The position numbers and the translations under genes were made by a program. Below are positions 10,046 through 60,735 of a stretch of 64,000 nucleotides of DNA, piece after piece. The notes beneath the pieces are model-generated. The model searched no databases and was not told the DNA's origin. It saw nothing but the letters and a program-made list of their open reading frames with translations. Numbering within the stretch: position 1 is the stretch's first letter; each line of letters opens with the position of its first letter. This stretch comes from Bugula neritina (Eukaryota > Animalia > Bryozoa): the NCBI GenBank assembly GCA_964035545.1, contig OZ037770.1, positions 5,404,729-5,468,728 of the forward strand, in the 5' to 3' direction.

Positions 10046-12444
10046 CACAGTGATAATCAGTCGAGTCAGGAGTTGAATAAATAGTTTAAATACACATACC
10101 CAGAGATCTACCAGTTGGAGGCTAAAGCAGCAGATTTGACATCTTATTTCACATCCAAACACATACAGTTATCTATAAAAACAACAGGATTATTTCTGAA
10201 AAAAGCAAAACATGAACACAAAAACAGTCCAAGTATGTAATGGGTGAGCCTAGCAAATATAGCTGACTAGTAATTGATTTATGCAAATAAAACATCTTTA
10301 AATCAAATGTTTTCTGTGACAGATACATACGGATTAATGAAGCAAGTGGATTGAGCATTCCATTCAGTATATTAAATATAAAAAAAGACAATATTTTACG
10401 TATTAGCTATTGATGAAGTAATATTCTCCACATTAGAAGTAAACAAAGTAATATTGTAAACACTGTTTAAAAACCAAAAAGTTTACTTTCAGCAGCATTA
10501 CATCATGCTAGAAAATTATCAGATTATTTATAATTTGCTATTTCTGTAATGAAGGGATTTGTAGTATTTCATAGGCTAGCGACTAGTTAACCAGATGTGG
10601 TTTGCTGACTGCCCTAAAAACATTCAATTACTTGTTAGGCTTGACTACTAGGAGGAATGTAAAAAGAATGCAATAGAGGACTTAAATCCAAACTTTCAAG
10701 TTAGCCAAAAGTCTATTTAACAATAATATCAAATTAATTTTTAATGCCATGGTGTAACTTAGTTACAACTATTAATCGTATTCGCTAATGGCTGTCACTG
10801 TTATTACTGTAGTTGCGCAGATCAACTATAAAGTAATTAGCATAGTGATTATATATAAAATATATAAATAGTGAAGCTAATCATTAGCAGAGCAATAGTC
10901 ATTAATTATTATCAGCATCAGAAAATACTATTGCGATGCATACTACTACAAACATCACATGAATATATCACAAAATATCATATTCATACTGATTTTGACA
11001 ATTCACAATTATATTTAAATTGTGTATTACATTATAATTACAATCATGGATTTATGATAAGGATTAAGATTAACATAAAATTACTGTACACCCATATTCG
11101 TATTGACATTTACATTAAATTATCATTAGATTTACTATCAGTACTACTAATTTATAGTTTTAGCAGCACTAATTATTAAACGGATAAATACTTTAATGGA
11201 AATCATTAATGGTTCTGCTATTGACACATTATGATGAAAAAAAACATATTACCACTATCATTTGATAGATATCACTATAACTATAGGTAATCACCCTTAA
11301 CTTGAAGTTAATGGTTATCATTACATTTAAAATTATATGCATCTCAATGGTAATGCCATATTACCATTGAGATGCATATATATTAAATTTAATATTCATA
11401 TATATATTTACAAAGTCAAAGTGATTATCCTTATGATTATCATTACGACAATGGTTATTATCATGATGGCAATCTAAACCATAGTGATAATTATAATCAT
11501 ATTGATACACTTATAGTTGCAGTCAGAACCCATAATGGATAATAAGAATGATAAACTCATAGTCAGTCATAAAATTTGAAGTTGAATTTTAACGTAAAGA
11601 AAACATTGACTGACAATAAAAACCAGTACGTGGCGCTAGATATCATCACAATTTACTACTATGTAGCCTAATTGTTTTACTACATGTTATTATGGCTAGT
11701 AACTTAGCAAAACGTTAATAAAACTACGATAATGAGAAATGGTGGCTGTAATTAGGTAGCAATTTGGTAACGATCTGCTCAAACTAGGAAGTGAGTCGGA
11801 AACGGAAAAGAAAAGCAAATACTCGCGTTGGCAAAAAGTCATGCGATGTCTATTGCTTGCGCTGTAGAGTTTTCTTCTCACGGCTAAAATTAGTTTTTGT
11901 TGCTTTCATTTTTGTGTCAATTATAGATATTAACAATGATAATATATTCATATTGTAATATTCACTGAGTTGTATATCTCGTTCCAAATTTTGAGTGTGA
12001 GTGTGCGTGCGTGCGTGCGTGTGTGTAGTATGTTTATCACAAATAATATGAATTGAAAAGGTATACAATTTATGAAAATTAGTTGATATTTATACATATT
12101 GTAATGGGATTATGTAGCATAATAATGGGGTCGTCCCCTCCTGCGTGGAATAATTATAACCATGTTCTACTATCCAATCAAAAGGACCGGAAGGCAAGGT
12201 TCCGGTCAAGTGACTGTTCGCGGGTTAGCTAGCAGAAACCATGTGTTGTTGAGAGCAGGGGCTCGTAGTAGTAACATGTGTTTATAATTGATTGATGTAT
12301 TGTGGTTTTGATGTGATGTTATAATTATGTTTATCGAGTTAAATAAAGGTTATCGTACGCAAGCTCTGCTAGTAATTGCTAGTTAAATTGAAACTAAATA
12401 CGCAGGCAATCCACGCTTAATAATTGCACTAAAACTCACAACAG

Positions 12445-12462
12445 TGGTGGCAGCAGTGGGAT
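12445..12462 (+). promoter_or_regulatory. Primer-binding site, tRNA-Leu type
   Basis: TGGTGGCAGCAGTGGGAT just after the LTR; near-complement of the tRNA-Leu 3' end (..ATCCCACCGCTGCCACCA). A similar PBS starts at 46979. Confidence 0.75.
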
Positions 12463-15400
12463 TTCGCGTATATCAAGATGACAGAAAGAGACACAGAGCT
12501 ACCCATTCGGAGGAATGAAGGTGAGGAAGATAACGTTGCTATACCTATAGAACCAGAGGGGAGAGTGCATAGGGAATGTTATGAGGAGAAGTACCACTGA
12601 GGGTGCCCACCTTCTCAGGTGAGGAGCCGGTGGAGCAATTCGTCTAAGAATTCCAAGATGTAATGGAGGTTGCACAGTGGCCACCCAGAATAGCATTGCT
12701 CAAGCTCAGGATGGCACTGTCAGACACGGCCTAGCCATACGGAGTAGGACCAGACATTGACGGAATCTTTGTTTCCCTGCGGGCCCGTTTTGGCATCTCC
12801 GCCGTAGACGCGCGGGCCCGTCTCCAGATATTACGGCGTGATCCTCACACGCCGCTACAAGAGCACGCTACCACGGCAATGATGCTGGCACAGATCGCGT
12901 TCTGCAACCTGCCGCAAGTAAACCGTGAGAGGTACACCTATGATGCCTTCGTGCAGTCCATCAACGACTTGGGACTCCATCACCAACTCCTGGCGAGGGG
13001 AGTCACCACGGTCGAAGGTGCGTTTGCAGAAGGGGAAGCTTACCTTCTGGCCAGTCAGCTGCACCGGAGTCGTGTGACTTTTCGTCAGGTGGACATGGAG
13101 CCCTCCGCTGCTCCTACCGCTTCTAACGCGGAAACCATAGCGGTGGCCAAGGTGACGCAGATGACGGTGGCATCGAAGGTCGCACAAATGACCGACATGC
13201 TAGTCGAACTGGTCTCTGCCTTTGCTCCTCTCAGCCAGCTAGACGCTACTCATGAGCTTGACGGGCCACTGGTCCAGTCACCTGGTAGAGGACACCCTTT
13301 CTTGCTGGGAGTGCAGAAGACCAGGACACTTCCAGAAACACTGTCCACGACTTAAACCAGGGTTAAACTACGACGGCCCGCGGATGCTCCCACATCCGGC
13401 GGGCTGCCGATAAATTCCCAAGAGAGGACACAGTGGCGTCCGCCACGCCGGACACCCGTCCGGAACCTCGCGGAACGGCCACCAGGATGGCAAGCAGGCT
13501 GTACAAGCCGCTCGCCGCCGCTGTTCTCAATGCCACCCGCAACAGGTTCGACAAATGACGGACTGCAGAGTCTGCGAAAGGAAAAGCCCAAGCGCTGCAA
13601 GGCGTGGCGCCATCCCCTCAGCAGCTGGTCCCCAGTCGTCGTCAGAAGCCTAACTCCTTCCCCATGGCGAGGGAAATGAGGTCACACAAGATACCACTAC
13701 ACCCCCACGAGAGCAGCCTGTTTCTACCAGGACGGATAGCCGGCAAGCCTGCCAAATTCCTGCTAGACACGGGCTGCACCACCAACCTTCTGGGTCGTCG
13801 ATTCTTTGACACACTCAGCGCTCAGATCCGAAGCAGGTTGAGGCCGTACGAAGGCGATCATGGCACCCTGGCAGACCGGTCGTCCATCTCCTTCTACGGT
13901 GTCATTGAACTCCCTAGGAGCGTCTGTGACCAGACCATCCAGGAGACGTTTATTGTTGGACAACTCTAGGAGGACGCCATCTTTGGGATGCCATTCTTAC
14001 AACGACACGGATGCCGCATCAATTTTGGTAAATCTGCGATGATTATGGGCGGCCGAGAGCTCGCCTGTGTCGATAAGTTTGGCCATCCCCTAACGGGAGA
14101 AGAGCCGGTAGTACGTACTTGTGCTATGCCCGGCCACTCCCGGGACACCGTCCACCGCCAGGTAGACGGTGGCCGTACCTCCAGGCCTGGAGCTGTAGAG
14201 AGCGCGCACCCGAACATCCCACCTATCTGCAGCTCTAACCAGCTGACACGGAGAAGAAAGACCTCGGTGCCATGCCTCCACTCCCCCTCGGAGACGGTGA
14301 ATCTACCACCCACCTCTCCACAAAGCTGTACTTCTTCTGTTCAAGAAGATAACAGCAGACCATCGCGGGAAACCACGATGGGAAGTCCTCTAGAGAACCT
14401 GCTCCAGGGCGAAAGACTTCCTCACCCCACACCCCACACAGCCTGGGGACTCGTGGGGGAGAACTAGACGATTGCGTAGATAACGAGAAGCGCCAAGAGA
14501 CGGCCACGTTACTACATAAAACCGAGGCAACACCTCACCTTGGGGACCGTGACATGCCCCCAGAGGTGGCACAGGACCCCCACGCCGAACCCATCTCAAC
14601 CGATGGCGTCAAGGAGCTAGGACACCTCCAGGAACATATTCCGGGGGTGGTAGCCGACGTCTATCGAATGAAAAGGAAAGGGCGACGACCCAGTGACAAA
14701 CAACGGAAGCAGGGCTGCGCCGAGTGGCAGCTGTACTGCCGACGTTGGAACGCACTGCGGATCGGGCCGGATGGTCTATTGACCATATCTTTGGCCGCTA
14801 ACCACAACCAGCCAGACCCGGAGAGGACCCTCTGTCCTGCAGCCATTCGCCGGGAGTTGATAGAAGAGGGACACCAGCAGGCTCTTGGGGGAGCCCAACA
14901 GGTGCTCACCGAACTACAACTCTGGTGGCATTGGCCTAAAATGGAGCGTGAAGTATGACGCAGAGTTAGGCAGTGCGGAGTCTGCCGGGCCAGTAAGCAC
15001 GGCCGCCCTCCTGGCAGAGTGGGGCGGCAGAGGCAAAGTGCAAAAGAGCCCGGGCAGACGGAGACTGCTGACCTGGTCGACAAAACGCCCAGGATGCAAC
15101 CCAAAGCTGTGGTGAGGCAGGAAAAGCCACACCCGTTCAGGGAAGTGCGCTCACCGCGTTCAGCGTGCAAGCTGCCACCGCCACTTCCTAGGTCAGAAAC
15201 CGACCTAGAAGTGCAAAACCCCCCCACTGGAGGGGGTTCGTGCGGAGATGTTAGGAAAGCTCCATTTGTCACAAACTGGCTGAAAGCACCACCCATGAGA
15301 CGTGACTATCCACGGGTGCGTAAACCGCCCTGGTTGGTGACAACACCTCGGAAACGGTGTTCTAGACCAATCCCCGCGTATTGCAAGGACTTACCACGTG

Positions 15401-15641
15401 CCGTTCAGGGCGCGGTCAAACGTCCTACGAGGCGCCGTACGGGGAAGAGAGCAAGGCGTGGGAGTTGTGAACACCACGAGAATATCAACTTTTGCTTCGG
15501 CGGAATCTCAAACAAGATTCATACGCCGGAAGTAATAAGTCTTAGCCACGTTTCACAACCACGCTGCTCGCTATTTCATCACATTAATACAGCTTTGAGT
15601 AGACGTACGTAGAAATCATAAACATACCACTCTCATTCACA

Positions 15642-16670
15642 ATGGCTTGCCAAGAATCGAGAGGTGAGTTAGTTATGTTTTTGGTACGAGGGCTAAACTG
15701 TATTAATCAGCTTAACTGTAACAGAATAAGCTGGAGACTCGGTAAGGATTTTTAGTGGTGGGAACTCACATTGACTCTAAGACTGAACAGTCCGTTACAG
15801 CAGTGTGTGTTTTCGATCAACTATTCATTAGCTGAGTCTGATGAGTGTCTAATTGAGTTAAGTACCCGCCAGGCTATATACACCGGTTGTACTCAGTGTA
15901 CCCTCTTACACTGTTATACTCTTGCAGATCACACTCGATTGACCAACTCCGGGTCACAAGATCTACACTCTCTCTCCTCCTTGGATAACGGACCGGAAAT
16001 GGACAACGGACTGCCCGCGGTGCTGCGTCGAAGACACAGATGGGTGTCGCGACGGACGGAGCGACAAATTGAAGAAGCCTGGGGACCGAGTAGGTCACAA
16101 CACACCTGCCATGTGTGTTACGAAGAGCTTCCTTCCCACCAAGGACTACGGCTGCATGTAAATGCACACTTCCTGCTACGTTTCTGTCCGTGTGGATTTC
16201 ACGACGTATACCCATACCCCGTCGTGGCTCATATGATGGACTGTTTCGCGGGCGAGGGCTATGTAGTGGACGCGGACAACTATGACCAATATCTAGAAGC
16301 TGTCAGACTAGTGGTTAAGAAGGCTTTGACCTGGGCCGCATTATCCTCCGGATTTTAAACACTACTAACAGCCACCCGTCAGAAATCCCCCATGGTAAAA
16401 ACGGTCGCTGCAATAATACTTCGGCCGGACAACACCCCCATGGAAGCATCAGACTCTCCAGAAGAAGCGACGCCAACTCTAACCAGGCCTAACAGACTAG
16501 CCACGGTTGAGGAAAGACTCCTACGACTGCAGGATGAATTCACCCAGTTGGCCCCCAACTTACTCAGCACTTCAATGAGCCTTAGTGAACTAAAGGGCTC
16601 AGTGGGACGCCTTAAGCGTAGATTACGTGCACGGCAAGCACGACACCGAATCCAGTCCCTGAAAAACTAG
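15642..16670 (+). pseudogene. Retrotransposon ORF3, spliced (15642-15663 + 15928-16670): C2H2-type zinc finger, CPCG Cys/His motif, coiled coil; one in-frame stop
   Basis: ATG GCT TGC CAA GAA TCG AGA G|gtgagt ... ttgcag|AT CAC ACT is in frame with ORFs 15771..16358 and 16392..16670. TAA at 16356-16358 aligns with CAA in the sister element. Confidence 0.8.
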
Positions 16671-18281
16671 GAGCTAGAAGTTGACAGTTCCACCCCACAT
16701 GTCCTCGGGGTACTACATTGTGATCATGTAAATGCTTGATCTGCTAACGACCTACGATCCAGGTCTCTCTCTCTGTGGCTGACCAGCTGTGTGTTGGCCG
16801 TCTGTTATCTTACTTATATGTCTATATATGTTGTACATTTGATATTTTTCTTCTTTCTCTTTGTGGATTTTCTTTACTTATGTTATTTTTGCATTATTAT
16901 ACTATTTTTGTTTTATCAGAAAGTGGGGCTTTCTGCTGGTGGGGGCGGTGTAATGGGATTAAGTAGCATAATAATGGGGTCGTCCCTTCCTGCGTGGAAT
17001 ACTTATAACTATGTTCTACTATCCAATCAGAAGGACCGGAAGGCAAGGTTCCGGTCAAGTGACTGTTCGCGGGTTAGCTAGCAGAAACCATGTGTTGTTG
17101 AGAGCAGGGGCTCGTAGTAGTAACATGTGTTTATAATTGATTGATGTATTGTGGTTTTGATGTGATGTTATAATTATGTTTATCGAGTTAAATAAAGGTT
17201 ATCGTACGCAAGCTCTGTTAGTAATTGCTAGTTAAAGTGAAACTAAATACGCAGGCACTCCACGCTTAATAATTGTGCTAAAACTCACAACAATATGTAG
17301 GCTATTGCTAACAACCTCTTAGACTAAAGTAATCTGCTAACAGGATAGTAGGGTTTTATAGCAATCTTTAAATCAAGTACAGTGTTCACCTTCATACAGA
17401 ATGGCAATAAATTGCATACGCATGAACTAGAATGTTGATAAAATGGTGTAGTGAATTTCCTAATTCACAATATTATGTGGGTCAACTTAAACAAAGCTAC
17501 TACACCAGACTATTTACGTTAAAACAAGTTTATTATTGTAGTGAGTCATGCAATGTACTAATATGAGAATCGTCCTCTCTCCGTTCTAGGAATACTAAGG
17601 CCCCTATGTAGTAACCAATCAGCAGCACCGGAAGATATGCTTCCGACTAATGTGACAGTTCCCGGGCAATTGACATTGATCACGTTGTTGTAAGCGAGGG
17701 CTTGAAGTAGAAACATGTGTTAGTAGAGGACTGATGTTATAGCGTAATTTGATGTAATGTTTGCTTTGTATTGTATTGTGGATAATAAACGTAAGTACTC
17801 GACAGCTACCTTAGTAATTGCTAGAAACTATCTCGCAGACCACCAGAAAACCAGACCATCCGGTCCGAATAGCTGCCGCTACCGCTAGCCCTTCTTTGGA
17901 AACCGAGGTCGACTGCTTGATGACTAAGCTGAGACAATTGGTAGCGACCATAACATACAGGAACCCCAGGGAGTACAAGAGACCAACCATAAAAACTCCC
18001 AGACCAGCTATACGTTGCTAGGGATGTGGCACCCGGGGACACCGCCGCTCGAGCTGCCCATGACCTAGAAAGCAGCAAAAACCCCATGATCCCCGGGAGC
18101 CCCCAAAGCTCCGCGGGCCAAAGCAGAAAAAAAAACGGGGTGGATATCGCCAGCAGTCCGTACGGACCCAGCGGTATGCCCCCCCCACCAGTGGCAAACA
18201 CCTCGGCAAACCAGCCAACCAGGACGACCACAAGAACCTTTCTCTCTGCCTCTCACTAACCACTTCGGTCCGCTACCAGAA

Positions 18282-21200
18282 ATGGAGCCGACCAGCGAGG
18301 CCCCTACAGGCATCGGAGGGGATCAATACACTCCTCTGCAAGGAAAATCTCACCGGCCCCGCAAACCGCGGAACAAACGGGCACAGCCCCAGTCAGCCGA
18401 GACCGAGCACGCTGGGGGAGTACGGGTACAGCCTCACGGAGGTAGCTACTTTTTGCCAGGGAAGGTGGCTGGCAAAGCTGTCACCTTTCTGTTAGACTCC
18501 GGGTGTACCACTAATCTCCTCAGCCGTCGGGTCTTCGACACCCTCCCCTCTAGGGAGAGGGGAGCCTTAGGTCCCTATACCGGGAAACCAGGCACCCTAG
18601 CTGACGGGTCACGGATTCCATCCTACAGTATTATAGAGCTGACTGGGCGCGTCCGCGACCAGGCCATCCAGGAAACCTTCGTCATCAGCCAACTCGAAGA
18701 GGATGCTATACTGGGAATGCTGTTCTTGAAGAGACACGGTTGCCGCATTGACTTTAGCAAGTCAGCCATGCTGATGGCCGGCAAGGAACTCGCCTGTGTC
18801 GACAAGTTTGGTCGTCCCCTAGTGGGAGGCGTGCAGGTAGTACGGAACTGTACAATACCCAGCCGCTCCCGGGCTGCCGTTCACTGTAGAGTGAACAATA
18901 GCCAACTCTCGGGGTTGGGAGTTGTCGAAGGTGCGCACACGAGAATCCAACTCGCCAGCAGGCTTAACCGGCTGACTGACCGAGGAGAGAACTTGGTGCA
19001 GTGTGTCAACCCTTTCTCCGAAGCGGTACAATTACCGTCAGGATCCATGCTGGGCCGCTTCCACTCCATCCAGGAGGAGGATATAAGGCCGTTGCTGGGA
19101 GCTGCGACGGAAGGGCCTCAACAGAGCCGGTCAGTTAGGCGAGGGACCGTCCCACCACACGTTCAAGAGCTATACCAGGCAGCGTGTGACGGCTGGACGG
19201 GCAACGGAGAGCGCCAGGCCATGGCTCAGTTGCTACGTGACTATAGTGAAGTGTTCAGCAGCGGGGACCATGACGTCAGCCTGACCACGGCCGTCCGTCA
19301 TGAGATCACGCTGGCTGCAGGGACTGCCCCTATCCGACAGCCCACTCAGAGACTGGGACCCAAGAAAGAAAAGGAGGCCAGCCAACAAGTCTGGGATTTT
19401 TTGGACCGCGGTCTCATAGAGCCAGCACACAGTGCGTGGAGCTCGCCGGTCGTCCTGGTCCAAAAGAAAGACGGCAGTTGGTGGTTCTGTGTGGATTATC
19501 GCAAACTAAATAACGTGACCATACAGGACGCCTACCCCTTATCCAGGATCGAGGAATCTCTGGTCGCCTTAACCGGCAGCAAGTACTTCAGTTCGCTAAA
19601 CTTGTTGAGCAGCTACTGGCAGGTCCCCCTCAGTCCCGACGCCCAGGAGAAAGAGGCGTTCATCACGCGGGACGGCTTATGGGAGTGGAAAGTCCTACCC
19701 TTTTGCCCGCCTTCCGCTCCCGCCATCTTCCAGAGACTCATAGAACAGGTCCTCAGTGGACTCCACTGGAAGACACTGCTGGTATACCTTGATGTTGTCA
19801 TCATGATCTCCCCAGACTTTCAGACACACATCAGTCGTCTGCGGGAGGTCTTCAAACGACTCAGAGGTGCCAATCTGAAGCTCAAACTTTCCAAGTGCGC
19901 TCTCTTGCAGCCAGAGGTGAAGTACCTGGGGCACATCGTCGGCCATCACGATGTGGCGACGGATCCTGAAAAGGTACGAGCTATAGAGGATTGGGTCACC
20001 CCCCAGGATTTGACCGGGCTACGGGCTTTCCTGCGGCTGGTAGGGTATTACCGGCAATACATACCAGACTTTGCGGGGGTAGCGCAGCCGTTAAATCGGC
20101 TTACCGCAAAGGGGGTGACCTGGCAGTGGACTTCTGTCGAACAGAGAGTGTTCGACTGCCTCAAAGGCCGCCTACTAGAGGCCCCCATCCTAGTCTACCC
20201 AGACCCTGCCCTGGAGTATTTCCTAGATACTGACGTCAGTGACCAAAACGTCGGCGCTGTGCTGTCCCAGTTGCAGGAGGGCCGCGAAGTAGTCGTGGCC
20301 TACTACAGCAAGTCTCTCTCACCCACCGAACGAAATTACTGCACTACCCGAAAGGAACTGCTGGTAGTAATCAAGTCGGTGAAGCACTTTAGACCTTATC
20401 TATACGGCAGGGAGTTCCGCTTGCGGACCGACCGCGCTTCCTTGATTTAGTTGTGCAAGAGAGCAGAACCGTCCAGCCAAGTCGCCAGGTGGCTCGAGGT
20501 CCAGGCCAAATTCTCTTACCGGATCGAACATCGGCCAGGTAAGAAACACGGCAATGCTGACGAACTGAGCCGGCGGCCGGACGAGGGGTGTACAGAGGAT
20601 AGTTAAGAGCATCCTCACTAAGAACATCATAAATTTCTCTCAAAATGTAGTTTGGGTTCTTGAATAATATTGCTCTGCGGATGGCATGCATGTTGCCTAC
20701 TTGCAATTGTTTAGCCTAAGATCAAACTACAACCAATAAGCAGCAACCTTCATTAGGGCTGTGTTATCTATCAACATTTTATTATGGATGCTACATAAAC
20801 AAAGTACAAAGCAAGCTATTCATTATAGCCTGCCAGCTAACAAGCCTGTAATTAGCATGTACGCGCCAATATCTTCTCATCCATACGTGCTCATTGAAGC
20901 GTGAAGTACTGCGTGCTGCTAGTTTCTTATGAAAAAATATGGCATTTTTAGTGTATAAATCACCAATTTGTGGGCAATCTAGAAGATTTATTGGAAAAAG
21001 AAAAAAAATTACCCTGGAAAAATATCTCAGGATTCCAGCAGTGCAATTTTTATTCAGATATCATGCTTTGCTGCTGAGATATTTTACTGGTACTGAAAAG
21101 TCAGCTTTTCAGGAAAAATTGGCCAAAATTGGGGAGTTTTTTGTCTATAACTTTGCAAAAAAAATGAAAATTGAAATTTCCAAAAAAGTTACCCTGGAGA

Positions 21201-23428
21201 ATAAAAAGATCTACAGCATAGTTTTTAAATTTTGACTTAAGCACAATTAGGTGAGATTTTATTTTACTGGTGCTGAATTCTTATATGATTACAATGCAAA
21301 CCTCAGCAAGGCAGTCGCAGCTAAAAGGTTGTCCTTAACTATCCTGTGTCTCCCAAAATCCGAGTTGGAAAAGAGTATGACTGGGACCAGGGTCAATTCC
21401 TACAGAAGGCTGATACGCCCCCGGAGACTATCCAGAGTCTCCGCGCCAATCATGTCTCGACTGATAACGTCAGAGAGCTACGAAGACTCCAAGATGACCC
21501 CCCAGGGGTAGCAGCCGACGTGTATCGGACCAAGAAGGAGGGGCGACGACCCAGCGAAAAACAACTGCGGCAGAGATGCGCCGAGTTACGGCTGTACTGC
21601 CAACGTTGGGACTCCCTGCCGATCAGGCCAGATGGTCTGCTGACCATCACAGTGGCCACCTACAACAGCCAGTACGGGAAAGAGAGGGTGATCTGCCTAG
21701 CCGCCATTTGCCGAGAGTTAGTATGGGACACCCACAAACAGGCTCACGCCGGGGTCAAAAGGGTGCTCGCCAAATTACAGCTCCGGTGGTACTGGCCCGG
21801 CATGTGGCGTGACGTACGGTTTAGAGTCAAACAATGCGAAATCTGCCAAGGCAGCAAGCATGGCCGTCTCCCTGGCGAAGAGGGACGGCGTAGGCTATAT
21901 GCTGGAAGGCCATGGCAGGTGGTAGCTGTCGACCTAGTCGGACCCACGCCTCTCACCCCCAGAGGAAACAGTTGGATACTAGTATTAACCGACCACTTTA
22001 CCCGGTGGGCAGACGCTCTGGCTATTCGAGATGCGTCCGCCCCGACAGTGGCCAGGGTGCTAGACCAAAATGTATTCTGCTACCTCAGACTACCCGAGCA
22101 GATACATTCAGATCAGGGGGCTCAATTCTAGTCTCAACTGTTGAGCGACCTCTGCCGCCTCTGGGGAGTAAACCAAAGCAGAACCACTCCATACCATCCT
22201 CAGGGCAACGGGGTGGTAGAACGCAACAACCGCATGTTGGGCGACGCACTCCGCTGTCTGCTCCTCGGCCGGGGTCAGGAGGAATGGGATACGGTACTAC
22301 CGCAAGTCATGTAGGCCTATCGTAGTACACCACATACCAGTACGGGGGAAACTCCTAACCTCCTGATGCTTGGTCAAGAGACACGAGTGCCCGACCACCT
22401 CACATACCACATCCCAGAACAAGACTATACCATCCACGAGTATGCTCACAAATTGATAGAGAACCTGAGGGCCGCACACGAAATACTGCGAGCAAAGCAG
22501 TGGCAGGTACGGCAAGAGGACTCTCAGAAATCACCCCTCTATCGAACTGGGGACTGGGTGTGGATGATCAACTACCGTAGGCGTCGAGGACAAGCGGCTA
22601 AGCTCCAGCCTAAGTTTGTGGGACCCTACGTGGTAGTTGAGGCTATGCCCAATCATACGTACAAGTTGGAGCGCTCTGGACAGGTCTCTGTCCAGAATGA
22701 GGCCCGCTTGAAACCATATTGGGCTAGCCCAGGAGCAGCAGGAAAATTATCCCCCCCCCCCCGTTGTTGGAACCCAGGAGGTAGACAGCAACGCGCGGGC
22801 GGCAACGGCATGGACCAGAGTACGAGGTGGTTGTGCCGCGGGAGGAGGACTTGGTGAGGCAGGAAAGGCCACTTCCATCAACGGAAGTGCGCCCACCGCC
22901 CCCAATACCAAGTTTACCCACACCACTTCCAGATCCCCATCCGTGTCCGGAAGTGCAAAACCCCCCGTGAGAGGGGCTCCATCCGGAGACAATGGCGGAG
23001 AGGGAAATACCATCACCAATGACAGGCCAGAAACATCACAGGTGGAGCAAAATAGCCCAGCAGTGAGTACACCGTCCCCGACCAACAACCACATCCCCTC
23101 CCTAGCTAGTACGTCACTTCCCTTGGAACAGAGACAGCGTACTAGACAACCCCCAGCATACTTGAAAGACTTCGTATGTGACCGCGTTACAGACGGCAGT
23201 TACGAAAGTCTAGCTGGGCACCGTACAGAAAGATTTGCAGCAAAATGTGGGAGCTGTGAACACCACGAGAATACTAACTTTTGCGAAGGCGGAGTAGTAA
23301 GCAAAACTACTACGCCTGAGGCGAATAGTTCTAGCTGTGCGCAACAACCACGCTGCCTAACCTTTTCATACGCTGACGTTGTCAAGGGCAGACGTATCCA
23401 AACTCGATCTACTGACATCCAAGCTTGA
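18282..23428 (+). pseudogene. pol: Gypsy pol polyprotein (protease, RT, RNase H, integrase), disrupted
   Basis: LLDSGC protease; RT motifs FCVDYRKLN and YLDV (YLDD mutated); RNase H DTDVS...ERNYCTTRKEL; integrase HKQAH..C..C, VAVDLVGP, IHSDQG, GPY, RQPPAYLKDFV; several stops and a 756-bp insertion. Confidence 0.92.
20593..21348 (+). mobile_element. Non-autonomous DNA transposon with CACAGGATAGTTAAGG-type TIRs, inserted in pol
   Basis: Left CAGAGGATAGTTAAGAG, right CCTTAACTATCCTGTG; AT-rich interior; second copy at 61678-62536. No clear TSD and superfamily uncertain (CAC termini). Confidence 0.75.
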
Positions 23429-23437
23429 ACGCTGCGT

Positions 23438-24169
23438 ATGATTACAAATACCGGGTTCCCAGGTAAGCTTGCTTTGACCCAACATTCTCACTAATGGAAT
23501 CAGGTCTAACATCCGTTAGTTCTGATTTAATCGCTCTGATTGAATCAGAACTACTGGGGACCAAGTGGAACCCACCGAACCTGCCAGGTCTGTTTCGAGG
23601 AGTGCCCGTCACACCGCTCCCTGCGTCTGCATGTAGATGCACACTTCCTACTACATTTCTGCCCATGCGGGTTCCACGATGTATACCCGTACACTGTGAT
23701 TGTCCATAAATTGAGCTGCTTTGCCGGAGAGGGCCACATCGTAGATGAGGACAGCTTCTCCCAGTACCTAAACACCATCAAGCCGGTCATCAAGAAGGTT
23801 ATAACCCTGGCCGCACTAGCGTCAGGGTTCCAAGTACTGCTGTTATCCGCCCGCCATAAGTCTCCTATGGTTCAGGGCCCATCCACTACCCTCGTCAACC
23901 CTAGCAACACCCCTGAATCAGAAAGAACAACGATACCCCCAATATCAGAGACTGCTACAACCCCACCAAGGCCTGGCCGATTGGCTAGTGTAGAAGAGCG
24001 GCTTGTAAGACTACAAGCCAAGTTTACGCAACTTGCCCCTGACCTGCTGGATACGACGACAGGCCTATACCAGCTGAAGGACTCAGTGGGGCAACTGAAG
24101 AGGCGGCTACGTGCCCGACAGGCTCGACACAGATCACGCTCGCTACAAGAGTCAGAGTCCACCCAATGA
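23438..24169 (+). pseudogene. Retrotransposon ORF3 (zinc finger/coiled coil); exon 1 at 23438-23462, acceptor and start of exon 2 apparently deleted
   Basis: ATG ATT ACA AAT ACC GGG TTC CCA G|gtaagc; ORF 23540..24169 CQVCFEECPSHRSLRLHVDAHFLLHFCPCGFHD...RLASVEERLVRLQ...LKRRLRARQARHR is homologous to 15928-16670. Confidence 0.78.
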
Positions 24170-25086
24170 GTATGCCTGGGGTAGGCACCTTTCGGTGAAC
24201 TGTATCCTCGTCTGGAAAGTGACGAGTGCACCGACATTGGCCCGCGTGCTGGTAAGCACCCTCTCTCTTTATAGCTGACTAGATGTGTGTGTTCGATCAC
24301 CCTGTTTACTTCTGTATATAAATGTTTGTGTACTCAACTATTTCTCATCTTCCTTTTTGTGGGTTTACTTATGCATTCTTTTTTCTTGGATTATTGTATT
24401 GTTTTTCTTTATATGTGTTTTTTTTCGTATTGTGTTATCAGAAATTAGGGCTTTCTGCTGGGGGGGGGGGGGCGGTGTAGTGAGTCATGCAATGTATTAA
24501 TACGAGAATCGTCTGCTCTCCGTTCTGGGAATACGAAGGCCCCTATGAAGTAACCAATCAGCAGCACCGGAAGATATGCTTCCGACTCATGTGACAATTC
24601 CCGGGCAATTAGCATTGATCACGTTGTTGTAAGCGAGGGTTTGAAGTAGGAACATGTGTTAGTAGTTGACTTATGTATAGGAAAATTTGATGTAATGTTT
24701 GCTTTGTATTATATTGTGGATAATAAACATAATTACTCGACAGCTACCCTAGTAATTGCGAGTAGAATAGCCAACTAAATACGCAAGTAGAAACTCACGC
24801 ACAGTAATTGCATGAATTACTACAATCTTTAATGATACACAATACAGAAATTTATTTTGAAATCAAGCAAAGAGCATCCAACTCAGTCTTTTTTTAACTT
24901 TGCTAGTTCAAACAAAGAGTTGTTTGGCAAGGTAATATATGCAAATATATGGGTATTTGAGCAAATTATGACATAACGAACTATTGAACTAACTAAAAAA
25001 TGCTGCTATAATTCATTCGTGAAGCCTAAATTGATTGTATGTGAATGTGTGTGTGTGTGTGTGTGACTGAGTGGGTATATATATAT

Positions 25087-39300: not shown

Positions 39301-42266
39301 CTGATTAGCCAACACAGAAAATCGTCTTCAACTTGTTTGAAAATATAATTCATCATGAAAGCAAAAAATTTATAAAATTTATAAATCTATTCATATTGTG
39401 TGCAGAAAACTCTGCAGTAGATTGCAAATAAGCCTAAATACTACTTCATACAAAACTATATAGAAGTATGCGCATGAACATACACGTATATGCCCAATTA
39501 TGTACAAATGTATACATAATTTTTAGAATGATATGCACATCCATACAAGTTTATACACAACTGTGGAAGTATATGCATAAACACGCAAGTATATATACAA
39601 AACTAAAGAAGGATAGGCAGTACAGTAACTATATAGTTCAATAATTGTTACAATGTGTTTTGATTTCATTAAAAGATTAGTTGAATGATGCTCTGCAGCT
39701 TTACAAATTTGTTTCTCTCCTAATTCAGCAACAATTGTCACATCATTCCATTCACCACTTCATGAATTTGATGCAATTCATACAATTTTCAAGTGATGCA
39801 GAGAATGCTTTATTTATAGAAAGTAAAGACTTGAACACAATAAAACTTTTTTCAGGGGCCGGTACAGAGTTCACTTCAATCATACAATCTTTTACCTTGA
39901 CTCTGTGCATCTGCATGAAAAACTTATTTTAAAGCTGAGATACTGAGTGTGGTTATAATGTACCATATGATTTATTCCACAATAATATATATACCAATGA
40001 CAGCAATTGTATGAACACAGAAGTAATTGAGCATGATTTCGAAAAGTTTCTGAATCTATGGCATCATAATTCTTGTCAAAAATTACTCAACCTACCTTTT
40101 ATAGCTGTTCCTTCGTATATGATTTCCAGCAAAACCAAAATATTTTCATCTAAGTGGAAGGTGATGAGGATAATAGGAAGATATGCATTTTTATTGGTGA
40201 TTTTCTTTCTCTGTATAGTTGGGCTAAGAGACGGCATGCAGAGTGTTGAATAAGTCGTGTGCATTTATATTAAAGTCTTGATCTGAGTGGATCCTGAAAT
40301 AGAAATAATAATTTCATTACAGTATATGGAGAACAGCCGTGATTCAGGGGTTAGACCGTTTGCTTAGTGAACACGAAATCATGAGTTCAAACCGGCAATG
40401 GCCATTGGTGAGGTCAGAAAGAGTATCCAGTCATAATTGCTTCTGTGACTCATCTGAATATAAGCCATTGGCCTGATTTAACAAAAACCTCTTCCGTCAA
40501 GGGTTTCTCATAGGGATAGCAACTATAAACTTGCGTAAAGTTTTATATTACTTCTATTAGCTTAATGAATATATATTATAATATGTACAGTCTCAAATAA
40601 AACGCATTGCTTTATCAAAGTATAAAGCAATTGAAGCATGTTTGTGGTTTTATTGCGAAGCTAAATTAAAATTATCAGTATTTGTAGAGTATAAGTTAGC
40701 TTTATTTGAAAAGTTTTAGAAAGGTTGACACTGACAATTACTTAGAGTATAGCTGTAGGACAAACTATATATAGTGAAACCTTTTATTATATACAATATT
40801 TTATGTTATGTTACTTGGTCAGAATAATAGTCATTCAAAAATATATTAATTATATGATGAAAGATAAAATTTAGATCAGATTTAATTATGTTTCAGTAAA
40901 TCTTCCCCAAGCAAGCGAATAACACAAACACAATAACACACGTGCATGCACCTATGCATACACAACGTCGCAAAATAACACAAAATGACACACACAACAC
41001 ACACAACATAAATAAAAACAATTACATAATGTACAGGCATACGTGCAAACTATATTTAATTTTATGCCGTATATAAATGTGCACTAAAATTCAAAGCAAT
41101 AATTTGATATATATATAACACATACCTAAATAGTCTATAAAATACCACACATGTGATGGTACGGGAAGGTAGCAGAGGAAAAGATCTTTTGACAAAGTAG
41201 CATGTTTAGCCTCCTACTTGATTGCTGAGAAATAATGATATGATTTATAACCCAGTGAATACGTTTCTTTGCCGGATTAATCAAAGCGAATTGAATGAAA
41301 AGAATTTGTTGAAAAGCTAGAAATGCTGGGTGTGTCTTGCTGCCCTCCTTTCACTGTATTGTATTAGGAGCAATTTAGTCAGTTCAAAGAATATACCTGA
41401 TGTTTCATATGAGACTCTTTAGTTGATTAGTATTTTATAATGTGATTTGATTTCACTGATAGCTATCATTAGTGTCCTTTGTTAGTAGCTTCAACACAGA
41501 ATTCTTGTTATCTATTCCATTGTTAATTCTTTGTAATTTATATACACTAAGCAAGGCATGCTGAGCTTGCTTCTTTTAACAAATACAATACTCAAAACAT
41601 AATGCGGTTCTTTAGACACATATACATACTTTACATTGTAGGTATAATGTATCCTGTTCAGTGTACTGCATCATGTGACCTAGTTTCATAGCAACATGTC
41701 GTTTATCTTTTTGTGGATTTCCATATATGCTTAAAAACCTACTATAATATCGCGCTATCTTGCTCAAATATTGCTTTTGATACATACTGTATGAAATAAA
41801 TAAATTAAAAAAATTAAATACATGCTTAAATGTATATTGTATGCCCATACACTAAATTAGTATGCGCACTGTCTATAGAACATATTTACTTAGAGCAGGT
41901 GTAATTTACTTTACAATTAGTCATCACAAAGTATGATCTAAACCAAATGCATCAGATACAATATAGTTGGTCAGCTGAGGAAGTCAAAGTAGGTTTATTA
42001 TTTTCAAACAACAATATTAACACGATAGAATATCTTATAATGTACAGAGGTTTATTAGCAAGTTGAGTGAAAATTACTTGAGACGCTTGTTATTCGTTGA
42101 TTTTCAAATGTCTTAAAGAATAAACAATCAGTCTATTATTCTAATAAATTTCAAACTATCAACACAATATGTAGTGGGCACAGTTCATTGTATACTTTAG
42201 TATGTCTAGTGTATATACTATGTAGTCTAAACAGTGTATATACTATGAAGTCTAGGCAGTGTATAT

Positions 42267-42687
42267 GGGTCATTTTACTTAATTTAGTACACACTGAAGA
42301 TTTCCAGTTTTTAGCTATTTTTCACAATTTAGCTGCTAATGAACAAAGGTTTTTGCCCAAAACTAGTTAAATGTCAATCAACACACATAAATAATCGAGG
42401 TCCTTTTTAATTTTGATTAATTTTTCATGTTTTTTCCTAATTATTCAGCTACTTTTGATTGTAGACCTTTACGAAAAAACCATAACGGTCTGCAATCAAA
42501 AGTAGCTAAATAATTAAGAAAAAACATGGAAAATCAATCAAAAATAAAAAGAACCTCGATTATTTATGTGTGTTGATTGACATTTAACTAGTTTTGGGCA
42601 AAAACCCTTGTTCATTAGCAGCTAAATTGTGAAAAATAGCTAAAAACTGGAAACTTGCGGTGTGTACTAAATTAAGTAAAATGACCC
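42267..42687. mobile_element. Palindromic MITE, 421 bp (GGG termini, 4-bp TSD, Sola2-like)
   Basis: GGGTCATTTTACTTAATTTAGTACAC...GTGTACTAAATTAAGTAAAATGACCC, about 200-bp inverted arms, ATAT TSD; the empty site GGCAGTGTATATTATAATCT is seen at 42911 and 44911. Confidence 0.88.
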
Positions 42688-42709
42688 ATATTATAATCTG
42701 CGAAATGTA

Positions 42710-49500: not shown

Positions 49501-51267
49501 GTTCTGACTCCAGAGAGCAATGCCCATGAGTACGGGGATGAGCTCATTTCATGCATGAGGAAAACTCACAAGGTGTTACGTGAGCAGCAAAGGCATTTAA
49601 AGAGTGGTGACTCCGACGACCCCCCCCCCTTGTAAAAAATTGGGCAACTGGGTCTGAATAACCAGTCACCGCCGGCAACGCGGACAGGCGGCCAAGTTGA
49701 AGCCAAAGTTTGTTGGTCTTTATTGCATGACAGAGGTGATGCCAAATCACATTCCTAAAGTGGAACCTTCCGACCGAATGTCGGCCCAGAATGAAGCATG
49801 ACTGAAGCCGCACCGGTCGAGTCTTGATGCAGCAGCGCAGGCCCCACCACTACTGGTACCTATGCGCCGTTTCATCATAAGGAGATGGGGTAGGGTCGAC
49901 AAGGAGTTAGAGGTGGTGCTGCAAGATCAGGAAGATGGGTGCAACGCGCCGACTGACCAACCTCGGCTGCCCCCACCTCCGGAAGAGGCTGTCAACAAAC
50001 GGGCAGACCGGCCTGGGTCGGCCTAACCACCAGTAGAGTCGTTTGACACACCTGTTTTCCCTAATGAGATGAAGACTCCTCAAACTCATGAGGAAGATAT
50101 AGCTAGGGAGAAACCACCCGTAGTGGTGGAGTCACCGGTGGCAGCAGCTCCCCAAGTACTGTTGGAACGTAGCCAATGTACTAGGGCTTCCCCATATTAT
50201 TCGAAAGACTTCTTGTGTGACCTAGTTGACATGCATAGTATAGTATAACTTGTCAATCAATACAAAAGAAGTATGGAGGGCAGCAACAGAGAGTTGTACT
50301 TCCCAGTGGCATATAGATTAGGTCAGCTGGGGGGTCAGTAGGGCGAAGCCAAATCGCTAGCGAAAAAGGTATTTTGCAATTACACTCAGCTGTGTAGAGC
50401 ACCCTTTTCAATAGCAACCAGCAGAAGGACAGCATGTCTTTTTTTTAACATTGGCCACTACGAGCCCTAAATAAACAGATAAGTAAACAGCATGGCTGAT
50501 ACAGCACCTGTTTTGGAGGGTAAGTCTATCAGTCTAATTCTATTTAATAATCAGAATTTAATCTAGTAGCCGACTTCAATCTCACTTGGTCATAATGACA
50601 AAGTTGAACTCTTGATGTCAGGTAATTTTTTGCTGATTACTTCGAGTTGAGTAATCACCCAGATGGTTAATAGAAATTAGGAGGTTGTTGATTGTTGTTG
50701 ACCAACTTAGCCACCGTGTCGTACTGATTAGGTGAGGTCTCCCTATAGTAGAGTGTGATTCGATAACTGTTTAGTGATTATTGCAGGTAAGACTGCGCCT
50801 GTATCTCTCTGGATGCAGGTTTTACTAGACACACCAACTACACAGCGAGAAGACATCTCTGACACCGGCTTGGATATGCTGTTGGAACTACACTTTATCC
50901 CCTCTCCACCGATGGAGCAGCCGACCACCAGCACGGATGTAAGCACCACGCAAGTAGATACAAGTGACCAACTAGAATTACTCCAAGCCTTACTGCGACG
51001 AACTAATTGGACAACCCGCCGGACCATGACATTGATTCAAGCACTTTCTCTACACTTAAAAGACTCAGGGTTCATTTACCCCAACATTTTACTGTGATAT
51101 TCTGCCCCTGTGGGGTACACCACTTTTACAAGGATGCCATCCTACGTCACCAGCAAATTCAGCAATGCTATGTCGGCCATCTATACGAGGTCGACGCAGA
51201 ATCCTACCCTGAGTTTAGGGAGCTGATACTACCCCATTTAACCTCCCATGATTGCAGAGAATTTTAG
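46598..51267 (+). mobile_element. Old degenerate Gypsy element (5' LTR about 46598-46977, PBS, gag, integrase, ORF3), 3'-truncated; PR/RT/RH missing
   Basis: ..CACAACA GTGGTGGCAGTGGTGG PBS; gag IFDALRARFG and CWSCGSGGHLLKSC; integrase WQIVAVDLL, YRSTPYS; ORF3 homolog. The LTR start is approximate. Confidence 0.82.
50492..51267 (+). pseudogene. Retrotransposon ORF3 homolog, spliced (50492-50519 + 50787-), frameshifted and truncated
   Basis: ATG GCT GAT ACA GCA CCT GTT TTG GAG G|gtaagt ... ttgcag|GT AAG is in frame with ORF 50774; LQALLRRTNWTTRRT and LRVHLPQHFTVIFCPCGVHH..H..C..YEVDAESY align to ORF3. Confidence 0.72.
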
Positions 51268-55600: not shown

Positions 55601-56797
55601 ACACTCAGTCGTTTCTCATAAATGATTTTTCACCTTTCTCCGCCATTTTCTGATCGAGTGGCGAGCTTTGCATACAACATATCAAACTACAAAAGTTAGT
55701 GGTGTGGCAGTTAGGCTAAAGGAAATTAAAAAAACTGGTGTATATTGTCTCGCTTGATAACCTTTTAAATAAGTTTTAGTCACCCTTATCATATTGGCTG
55801 TCAAAAGATCATAATGATAGTTGCAAGTCATAGAGCCTAGAATGATGAACAGTATAGTGGTAGTAGTATACATTAATTGTGATCATGAATCTCACTAATA
55901 GATTCTACTGCTAAACAGTGAAATGTTAAAAGCGTCTTTTTAATAAAGACCAGTTGATCAAAGGTAATACTGATTTTTTAACTTTATTTGCTTCCCGGTT
56001 GTTGTATTTGCATGTAAATTTAGAAATTATTAAAATTATTTTATTTAATACTCATACGCAAGCTATTTTCTATAAGATGCATCTAAAATTATATTAGAAA
56101 AGTTTATTACGATGATCTAAAGAAACACAGCTGTCTCGGCTAATGATATGCTTCATTGAATACTGGTTAAATACAACTATTAATGTGCAGGCACCTCTGA
56201 TGAAATTAAGTGATGGCTAAATGATTATCATGTCATGAATGCCAAATAGATTTGTTCACTACAAGCCACAACCCATCTATTCTATGCTACATCTCTTATC
56301 TATTTGGCTGCCAGATTGAAAATTTTGATTAGTAAAACTGATTTGAAAACTAAGAATATAATGTCACAATTGATTTGTGGGTGTGAGAAAATAGAGGATC
56401 TCTATTTTAATATATCCCACCCAATGACTAGTTGATTTTTTATTACGGGTAAATATATACAGTTATTTTCTAGTCCTTCAGTTTTGATAATGCTGTTATA
56501 TAACAAACAAAATTTTAACAGATAAAATAAATTTATTGAAAACACTTGAGTCACGATCAATGCTGCTATGACATCTACTTGCTAATTTAAACATTTAGGC
56601 AGGCTGCATTGGCTTGTACAGTAATTGTTTTGTATCTATTGCTGCTCAGCTTAACTGGTGCCGAATCATAAATAATTTTAATTGATTACCAAACATTCAT
56701 GTTGTTAAACAAAATTGCTATGCCTAAGTTCTTCAATTGCCCTAAATTGCCTACTTGTCTCTTTATCCACACCCACACCCACACACACACACACACA

Positions 56798-56841
<44 letters not shown>

Positions 56842-57622
56842 CACACCCACACACGCACGCACGCACGCACGCACGCACACACGCACACACGCACACACGC
56901 ACACACACACATATATATGTCAGTCACAATTTTTCATTGCTTTTCGAAAGAGGAAAAATTGAAAGTCAACATTTACGAAAGGGGGAATGGTATAAAAGAC
57001 GTAGGAACCCACTGGTTTAAAGAATTTAAAAATGTCACTGATTCAAAGCTCCGTAAACTTTTGACAGCTTAAAGTCAACAATATCTATCAATTTATAAGA
57101 TAATTTCTGCAGGAAAAGAGGAGAGAAGAAGAGGCAGTTTGAGAAGATAAAGATGTCTAACAATAAATCTAGAAGACTTCCTAGAGTTGGAGTAGAACAC
57201 TATGAGTTGGCACAACCTAGCAGTTATGATGTCATTACAGATATCAATGTATATTCAGGTGCGTCTGTCTGTGTTTCTGTCCCTGCATTATGTCTGGTAA
57301 TCTAAACTTAAGTATGTTAACCCATAAGTGAGTTCTGTTTTTAGAGGTTCTGTCAATCCCTAACTGTACTAGTCAGTAGCCCTTAAGTAGTATAACCTAG
57401 GTACAAAATGTGGTGGTTTATCCTTCATGATACTCGCAGTTAGTCAATTTACTTTTTAAAAGATGACGTTTGGTTGTAGATCCTCATGAAAGGACCAGAG
57501 AAAACTATGAAGTTGCTCAAGGTACACTTTCCGTATTAGACAGGGGCGTCCTTTCTGCCCCTCGCCCTTACAGAAATATGTCTCAATCAGCTCAGCTAAC
57601 AAGCAGACAACTTTACCAATGA
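52607..57622 (+). CDS. Type I membrane protein, 472 aa: signal peptide, SUEL/Gal-lectin-like domain, CUB-like domain, S/T stalk, TM helix, Tyr-motif tail. Exons: 52607-52673, 52775-53122, 53448-53825, 53944-54027, 54157-54249, 54488-54647, 57113-57258, 57480-57622
   Basis: accATGG start; all GT..AG junctions phase-compatible (1,1,1,1,1,2,1); 1419-nt open frame. Signal [19 protein letters not shown]; Cys pattern ISC..VIEI..Y..C..C..C..NC..NC..C..LRVKFSC; [29 protein letters not shown] followed by KRKR. Confidence 0.85.
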
Positions 57623-59926: not shown

Positions 59927-59996
<70 letters not shown>

Positions 59997-60735
59997 TGCA
60001 AGCGTGCGTGCGTGCGTGCGTGCGTGCGTGTGTGGGTGTGTGTGTGTGTGGGTGTGGGTGTGGATAAAGAGACAAGTAGGCAATTTAAGGCAATTGAAAA
60101 ACTTAGGTATAGCAATTTTGTTTAACAACATGGATGTTTGGTAATCAATTAAAATTATTTATGATTTCGGCACCAGTTAAGCTGAGCAGCAACAGATATA
60201 AAGCAATATTACTGTACGTGCCAATGCAGCCTGCTTAAATGTTTGAGTTAGTAAGTGGATGTCATAGCAGCATTGATCGTGACTCAAGTGTTTTCAATTA
60301 ATTTATTTTATCTGTTAAAATTGTGTTTGTTATATAACAGCATTATCAAGACTGAAGGACTAGGAAAACCATTTATAAAATAACTGTATATATTTACCCA
60401 TATTAAAAAATCAACGAGTCATTGGGTGGGATATATTAAAATAGAGATCCTCTATTTTCTCACGCCCACAAATCAATTGTGACATTTTATTCTTAGTTTT
60501 CAAATCAGTTTTACTAATCAAAATTTTCAATCTGGCAGCCAAATAGATAAGAGATGTAGCATAGAATAGATGGGTTGTGGCTTGTAGTGAACAAATCTAT
60601 GTGGCATTCATGGCATGATAATCATTTAGCCATCAATTGATTTCATCAGAGCTCACTGCACATATATATTTGTACTTAACAATTAGTATTCAATGAAGCA
60701 TATCATTTGCCTAGACAGCTGTGTTTCTTTAGATC
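56113..60735. repeat. Inverted duplication: about 56113-57700 vs about 59150-60735
   Basis: Reverse-complement match includes exons 7-8 and the (CA)/(CGCA) microsatellite (56768-56910 vs 59958-60062). Confidence 0.93.
59229..59734 (-). CDS. Last two exons (59586-59734, 59229-59371) of a paralog of the lectin-like receptor; upstream exons not in window
   Basis: Intact splice sites and open frame [14 protein letters not shown]...[33 protein letters not shown]...PYRNISQ...LYQ*. Confidence 0.6.

Follow-up and report, generated by a model that had tools for sequence, protein, structure and literature searches.

Four Gypsy Elements Are Present in the Window

The locus raises the question of what is encoded by the gene that follows pol in four Gypsy retrotransposons of Bugula neritina, how this gene (ORF3) might be expressed, and what it might do for the element. 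The window, i.e., the whole 64-kb stretch of DNA that was analysed, is AT-rich (GC about 0.3), and four GC-richer islands on its plus strand correspond to the Gypsy elements E1 to E4. E1 carries the marks of an LTR retrotransposon, namely TG..CA LTRs, a primer-binding site, a polypurine tract and a target duplication. The pol of E2 runs protease-RT-RNase H-integrase by Pfam, i.e., in the Gypsy order, and the solved structure nearest to its RT/RNase H is that of Ty3 (E 6e-75). E1 to E4 are Ty3/Gypsy LTR retrotransposons, with E3 representing a distant family. E1 and E2 are laid out as follows:

12100..12443, plus strand: 5′ LTR of E1, 344 nt at 97% identity to 16949-17292, with TG..CA ends and a 4-nt target duplication
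12445..12463, plus strand: primer-binding site of E1, a TGG-starting tract adjoining the LTR; a similar E3 tract lies near 46978
12597..13352, plus strand: gag core of E1, assigned by position, with stops and a frameshift near its start
13700..15612, plus strand: pol remnant of E1 (protease, integrase zinc-binding part and tail; Pfam Asp_protease_2 and a weak Integrase_H2C2), collinear with E2
16941..17292, plus strand: polypurine tract and 3′ LTR of E1, the LTR itself at 16949-17292
17537..24762, plus strand: E2, with LTRs at about 17537-17824 and 24476-24762 that are 91% identical

We take the primer-binding site of E1 to be of the tRNA-Leu type. RT and RNase H are deleted from the E1 pol, and the E1 gag core, which gave no Pfam match, shows 39% identity to the same region of E3.

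A Mini-Exon, Donor and Acceptor Follow pol

An earlier, sequence-only reading had claimed that pol is followed in each element by an ATG, 7-9 codons plus one base and a GT donor, and that three elements retain a phase-1 acceptor. The layout was indeed found in 4/4 elements, in phase 1 throughout, and the acceptors are in place after 264 nt in E1, 267 nt in E3 and 272 nt in E4:

15642..15663, plus strand: local mini-exon of E1 (ATG, 7 codons and a G), donor GTGAGT at 15664
15664..15927, plus strand: intron of E1, 264 nt, GT-AG, non-coding
15928..16670, plus strand: ORF3 exon 2 of E1, stop codon at 16668-16670
23438-23462, plus strand: mini-exon of E2 (ATG, 8 codons and a G), donor GTAAGC at 23463
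50492-50519, plus strand: mini-exon of E3 (ATG at 50492, 9 codons and a G), donor GTAAGT at 50520, followed by the intron (50520-50786) and a broken, truncated ORF3 to 51264
63673-63697, plus strand: mini-exon of E4 (ATG at 63673, 8 codons and a G), donor GTGAAT at 63698, followed by the intron (63698-63969) and the first 10 codons of exon 2, to 64000, where the window end cuts the element

The mini-exon ATG is aligned across E1, E2 and E4. When the GT sites within each element were ranked with a generic donor matrix, the local donor came first of 266 in E1, first of 373 in E2, second of 287 in E3 and fourth of 85 in E4, where its score is weak (1.2 bits); the acceptors ranked 1/26 in E1, 2/17 in E4 and only 9/33 in E3. 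An ATG with 7-9 codons plus one base precedes 3/3 post-pol donors scoring at least 4, as against 1/31 of the other plus-strand and 1/32 of the minus-strand donors of that score (Fisher p 2e-4, a post hoc value on elements related to one another). Directly after the E3 acceptor lies the top donor-like site of that element (rank 1/287; 50784-50792), giving an AG/GT arrangement like that of a recursive splice site.

The same reading was silent on damage: all four copies in the window are broken or cut off. Exon 2 of E1 is interrupted by an in-frame stop at 16356-16358. In E2 the acceptor is gone, together with about 50 codons from the N-terminal end, leaving a remnant within 23438..24169 on the plus strand. 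In E3 a deletion/frameshift near 51035-51050 takes out most of finger 1, and the ORF ends near 51264 without the coiled coil. ORF3 of E4 runs off the window end; by eye, its flanking translation is like the full-length homologs P0136 and P0132. We infer the ORF3 splice from the DNA together with one protein record, described below.

The Local Intron Is Non-coding

In the read-through frame, the intron contains one stop in E1, five in E4 and eight in E3. The intron lengths of E1 and E3 are multiples of 3 and that of E4 is not; in the E1/E4 alignment, 12 of the 14 gaps are not multiples of 3, and the mismatches show no codon bias (p 0.20). Only the E1 and E4 introns can be aligned (z 17, against 1.6 and 3.2 for pairs with E3 and 0.7 and 2.3 with E2), although length is kept at 264-272 nt. 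Homolog P0003 was translated from the donor region straight into exon 2, and its donor frame differs from that of E1. ORF3 as one continuous frame through the intron was ruled out by the stops, the length of 272 nt in E4 and the frame-breaking gaps. On these alignments the local intron is non-coding.

ORF3 Is Conserved as a Gene

Over 194 codons, ORF3 of E1 and E2 shows 61% identity, with differences by codon position of 64/40/118. The dN/dS check that had been set beforehand gave purifying rather than neutral values: pN is 0.24 against a saturated pS of 0.80, and omega in the finger region is 0.12, vs 0.11 in the protease control. By this codon-level comparison, ORF3 exon 2 is a real gene under purifying selection. 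Searches for homologs matched 127/775, 115/2486 and 175/7991 candidates, from which the best 120 of 127, all 115, and the best 120 of 175 were listed, amounting to more than 140 distinct homologs overall. These are unnamed proteins; they carry no Pfam domain, come from environmental or read assemblies, and show 42-89% identity among the matches listed. At 70% identity the 102 rows of the alignment form 13 groups, and the ORF3 of E3 joins the family as a distant member (hhalign probability 98%, E 1e-13). None of the pattern matches in metagenome contigs (0/134 and 0/210) or in viral contigs (0/85) was an ORF3 locus. The one candidate from prokaryote genomes (1/53), a bacterial stretch without the ligand pattern, was dismissed as chance.

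No publication on this protein was found in the open full-text literature; a curated repeat entry (Repbase/Dfam/GyDB) could already record it. A zinc-finger ORF3 is not described in the accessible parts of PMC13524379, PMC8220671, PMC8556966 and PMC11952523. ORF3 is apparently an undescribed protein family with possible two-route expression, and accessory third genes and both expression routes already have precedents.

A First Exon at the gag Start Is Joined to Exon 2 in One Homolog

The second of the two possible routes begins near the start of gag:

12478..12520, plus strand: gag-start leader of E1, 14 codons and a G, a likely LTR-driven first exon of ORF3
12521..12526, plus strand: gag splice donor of E1, GTGAGG, phase 1, rank 3/266 GT sites, matching the P0016 junction

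Thirty-six of 148 ORF3 homolog proteins extend as far as the start of exon 2. In 35 of them, the residue before exon 2 is Ser (30) or Leu (5), which is what unspliced DNA with a YAG acceptor would give; these 35 come from unspliced copies. The remaining one, P0016, has a gag-like leader of 14 residues, 10/14 identical to the E1 start at 12478, that runs straight into exon 2. The leader ends at the exact position of the phase-1 donor at 12521, and the protein resumes exactly at the acceptor. This exact in-frame donor-acceptor join, in a single protein record, is best read as spliced RNA or its retrocopy, and suggests that the ORF3 acceptor is reached from the gag donor as well, in the style of env. 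Since P0016 starts at gag and skips gag-pol, ORF3 is not simply a self-contained two-exon gene. Of the two-exon gene proposed earlier, the use of the acceptor in splicing is borne out by P0016, and the join of the local mini-exon to exon 2 was found in 0/36 homologs. A Met precedes the first conserved motif in 33/36, and the three homologs that have none need an upstream exon. The local mini-exon is likely a second first exon of ORF3, with conservation as the only pointer to its use; that it goes unused, a possibility compatible with any proposed function of ORF3, strikes us as unlikely.

The three best donors of E1 are the local donor at 15664 and the gag donors at 12619 and 12521, whereas the gag start of E3 is without a strong phase-1 donor (rank 40/287). 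The donor at 12619 (phase 1, rank 2/266) would, if used, give a longer Gag-ORF3 fusion. In the X1 contigs, which are of unrecorded kind and look like high-copy DNA, 0/15 listed joints of 60, and 0/15 listed in E1, lie at splice sites; these joints are uninformative on splicing because the contigs drop rare forms.

The ORF3 Protein Has Zinc-Finger Motifs and Is Unlike Env

The motifs, length (about 254-255 aa) and coiled coil with basic tail that had been described from the sequence are present. From its N-terminus, ORF3 consists of an acidic/polar segment, an Arg/Trp motif, a C2H2 finger, a CxC-12-H-3-C finger and an amphipathic helix, followed by a Pro/Thr linker, a coiled coil with a leucine heptad, and a basic tail with 10 K/R in the last 25 residues. 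The predicted fingers read C-x2-C-x12-H-x3-H and C-x-C-x12-H-x3-C. Their eight predicted Zn ligands are kept in 88/90, 86/92, 90/100, 97/102, 98/102, 96/102, 101/102 and 97/102 rows, i.e., in 90-99% of the covering rows. The C-x2-C-x12-H-x3-H pattern occurs in 74/102 rows, and the Pfam C2H2 match is below cut-off (E 0.13). Beyond the canonical ligand sets, two more histidines are strongly kept as well (91/97 and 96/102 rows), and a non-standard metal site in ORF3 is possible.

Structure prediction gave a long C-terminal helix with confidence. The first model as a whole was poor (pLDDT 64, pTM 0.33); for the finger domain, the best of five models reached pLDDT 75 and the other four 45-52. The nearest folds by Foldseek are mostly tandem DNA-binding C2H2 factors, all non-significant (E 1.7 or worse). 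The top match, 5b3h (E 1.7), is an entry in which a finger pair is bound to protein. VIA-align of the ORF3 model gave a best Z of 4.0, which is not significant, the viral fold library gave nothing under E 0.5, and PDB sequence searches nothing under E 0.6. Pfam on 56 aligned members returned weak coiled-coil/finger matches only (ATG16 in 16/56, best E 0.005), and the Atlas search generic C2H2 leads only. The predicted finger fold is like that of IDD10/JACKDAW, HIC2, CTCF and SALL at a query TM-score of 0.2-0.35 and Foldseek E 1.7 or worse, so this likeness to C2H2/C2HC finger proteins is a lead, not a relationship. The CxC-12-H-3-C spacing presumably recalls IDD finger 4.

The Pfam, PDB and Foldseek checks thus left ORF3 without a significant family or fold match, and none to env. 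As had been proposed, it is also without a signal peptide or TM helix: by inspection the N-terminus is polar, the median best 19-residue Kyte-Doolittle hydropathy is 1.24, and 4/39 full-length homologs exceed 1.6. The hydropathy peak is the mid-protein predicted amphipathic helix, with internal Lys/Arg, and neither E1 nor E2 ORF3 has an N-glycosylation sequon. An env-like trait is the splice from a donor near the gag start in the P0016 record. On these features ORF3 is a non-env third gene.

A Conserved Block Precedes the Mini-Exon ATG

Upstream of the mini-exon, a block is conserved at 66-71% identity with no third-position bias:

15450..15620, plus strand: pre-ATG block of E1
23240-23410, plus strand: pre-ATG block of E2
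63480-63650, plus strand: pre-ATG block of E4

Fourfold sites are identical at 6/7 in the block vs 19/63 in exon 2 (p 0.007); this stretch of 150-170 nt is conserved at the DNA rather than the protein level. The block may serve as an internal promoter or as an RNA element. No TATA or Inr common to the four upstream regions was found, and Rfam gave no match. Folding of the block is stronger than that of its shuffles (z -1.8 to -3.1), with a covariation term of only -0.32 over three sequences. By this measure an RRE-like fold does not stand out from the element background, where 20/76 other windows also reach z -1.8.

ORF3 as a Candidate Regulator of Genomic RNA

Although the donors at the ORF3 splice sites are top-ranked, the inherited copies are unspliced, and the genomic RNA must therefore escape splicing. 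Given this need, a finger protein that is basic, prone to oligomerise and a product of the spliced RNA would be a natural feedback device. Spliced RNA is likely the sole source of ORF3, and a nuclear regulatory role of the protein is likely. As its function we tentatively prefer, short of calling it probable, a Rev/CERV-like regulation of genomic-RNA splicing and export. By default, the strong gag donor of LTR transcripts would be spliced to the acceptor, which would yield ORF3. The ATG mini-exon and its intron would belong to another, short transcript that likely starts at an internal promoter at the pol end. The Arg-rich motifs would carry ORF3 to the nucleus and the coiled coil would oligomerise it, while the fingers, along with the basic segments, would bind a feature that only unspliced RNA retains, for which the pre-ATG block and the length-conserved intron are candidates. 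Accumulating ORF3 would then tip the balance toward genomic RNA that can be translated into Gag/Pol and packaged, as a feedback switch.

Counted in favor of this role are the P0016 join, the three homologs that need an upstream exon, purifying selection, ligand conservation, the basic tail and the leucine heptad, as well as the required escape from splicing and the precedent of CERV in a Gypsy element. Counted against it, splicing rests on one protein record, with the mini-exon join at 0/36, and many homologs would be translatable without either first exon, given the internal Met in 33/36. Further, E3 combines a weak acceptor with the lack of a strong gag-start donor, the intron is alignable only between E1 and E4, no described domain layout is common to ORF3 and CERV, and the nearest folds, C2H2 DNA-binding factors, fit a transactivator at least as well. 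That this Gypsy lineage is a 'complex' retrotransposon with its own zinc-finger regulator, independent of CERV and of Rev/Tat/Tas, and with two routes in one element that form an early-to-late switch, is a more doubtful extension; if true, the switch would be like that of complex retroviruses.

A close rival, which we regard as possible, is that ORF3 is a DNA-binding transactivator or anti-silencing factor, made first from a basal internal promoter, then binding the LTR and the internal promoter and turning on genomic transcription, in the manner of foamy-virus Tas. Tandem C2H2/C2HC-type fingers, an acidic N-terminus and a leucine heptad with basic tail would suit it, the weak fold and feature matches are C2H2 proteins, and the DNA-level conserved block sits at the expected place of an internal promoter. 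A mini-exon with its own ATG would make most sense if ORF3 is expressible without the LTR, and internal promoters at the pol end are documented for Tor env in the accessible part of PMC4402516. However, the four upstream regions have no TATA or Inr in common, the fold matches are non-significant, and two fingers offer little DNA specificity. A transactivator alone also leaves unexplained how genomic RNA with top-ranked donors stays unspliced.

We consider it improbable that ORF3 is a spliced accessory protein at work in the cytoplasm or the particle, as a partner of Gag, a cofactor of integration targeting or an antagonist of a host restriction/piRNA protein, with fingers that bind protein. 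Such a protein would fit the first 14 residues that the gag-spliced form has in common with Gag, the protein-bound finger pair of 5b3h (E 1.7) and the coiled coil, but the strongly basic motifs point to import into the nucleus or binding of nucleic acids, and Pfam and PDB searches gave no enzyme or known antagonist domain.

It is very improbable that the gene is real and the local intron is not, i.e., that ORF3 uses a continuous frame or an internal Met start, the mini-exon layout is coincidence, and the gag donor, if any, is the only one in use. Such a view could call on the E1 and E3 lengths in multiples of 3, the single read-through stop of E1, the internal Met in 33/36 homologs, the mini-exon join at 0/36 and the weak E4 donor. 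It is opposed by the 5 stops in E4 and 8 in E3, the E4 length of 272 nt, the 12/14 frame-breaking E1/E4 gaps, and the constancy of ATG, phase, donor and intron length between families with unalignable intron sequences. Least credible of all is a degenerate env or small fusogen, since the post-pol position, the env-style splice from the gag donor and the 4/39 full-length homologs with a 19-residue window above 1.6 are set against a median maximum hydropathy of 1.24, a peak in a predicted amphipathic helix with Lys/Arg, no sequon in E1 or E2, a polar N-terminus, a zinc-finger Cys/His pattern and no env match.

Relation to Known Third Genes

The means by which LTR retrotransposons avoid splicing of their genomic RNA, export it and escape silencing are known for few elements. 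Among small regulators of retroviruses, foamy-virus Tas is made from spliced RNA, is also the product of an internal promoter, and switches on LTR transcription. HIV Rev, in the portion of PMC10309623 that bears on it, is a small regulatory protein from spliced RNA that controls expression of its own element. Rev lets the full-length HIV RNA evade splicing and exit the nucleus. Rev and Tas belong to Retroviridae and are unrelated to ORF3 in sequence, and an export signal and response element of ORF3 are only hypothetical.

In the literature covered here, the one Gypsy/Ty3-encoded export factor that has been tested is CERV of the C. elegans element Cer1, a precedent for both layout and logic (PMC10309623, accessible part, here and for what follows on CERV). 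It is spliced from gag-region exons to a post-pol ORF, has a Cys finger and leucine zipper, and is required for genomic-RNA export. Five exons encode the 517 aa of CERV, which include a candidate C4 finger beside H, M (Cys loop) and G-protein-like domains; the protein is reported there as lacking homologs beyond nematodes. Compared with CERV by description, ORF3 is half as long (about 255 aa), has C2H2 and C2HC-type fingers, carries a coiled coil toward its C-terminus and has a local ATG mini-exon in addition, and neither models nor searches gave a G-like domain in ORF3. The expectation that extra ORFs at this place are usually env understates the known non-env cases, i.e., CERV and the ORF3s of bdelloid LTR elements. 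The latter, as far as the available text of PMC5408684 describes them, are family-specific non-env ORFs after pol (GDSL, DEDDy, coiled-coil and TM). They are like the present ORF3 in being non-env, of 200-odd residues and after pol; neither zinc finger nor intron is mentioned for them in that text.

The third gene of Oikopleura Tor elements is either spliced from a donor near the gag start (Tor3a) or, in Tor3b/4b, expressed from an internal promoter that lies within pol or downstream of it, according to the portion of PMC4402516 at hand. There, the Tor product is a membrane glycoprotein, unlike ORF3 here, and the two modes occur in different lineages with internal-promoter transcripts unspliced, whereas here a single element appears to combine both routes. 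If the Rev/CERV-like role is true, ORF3 would be a second, unrelated regulatory gene, selected across many families, and retrovirus-like regulatory genes would have arisen more than once in retrotransposons. With two donors, one acceptor and a 255-residue protein, ORF3 is a small testable system, and its profile can find intron-split ORF3s overlooked by ORF-based annotation.

Other Features of the Window

The 3′ untranslated regions of E1 and E2 (16671-16948 and 24170-24475) share 69% identity (z 10.9) despite saturated synonymous sites, and non-coding parts of E1/E2-type elements seem generally constrained. The strongest folding windows of E1 (z -3.8, -4.1 and -6.0) lie at 13300-14490, over the gag-protease junction and the deleted-pol region. 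The E2 pol carries an insertion after RNase H (20592-21348), of which an inverted copy (94%, 491 nt) and a second piece (79%) lie near E4 (61678-62537); it is probably a small mobile element. Host DNA includes a LRR-Roc (ROCO-type) gene, seen as an open frame at 2-1027 on the minus strand (Roc E 3e-7, plus LRR matches). A 23-nt satellite is repeated in about 200 copies from 33220 to about 38200. A further hairpin of 209 nt lies at 42263-42691, and a long interrupted inverted repeat, with arms of about 1.5 kb at 77-94% identity, occupies 56161-60685.
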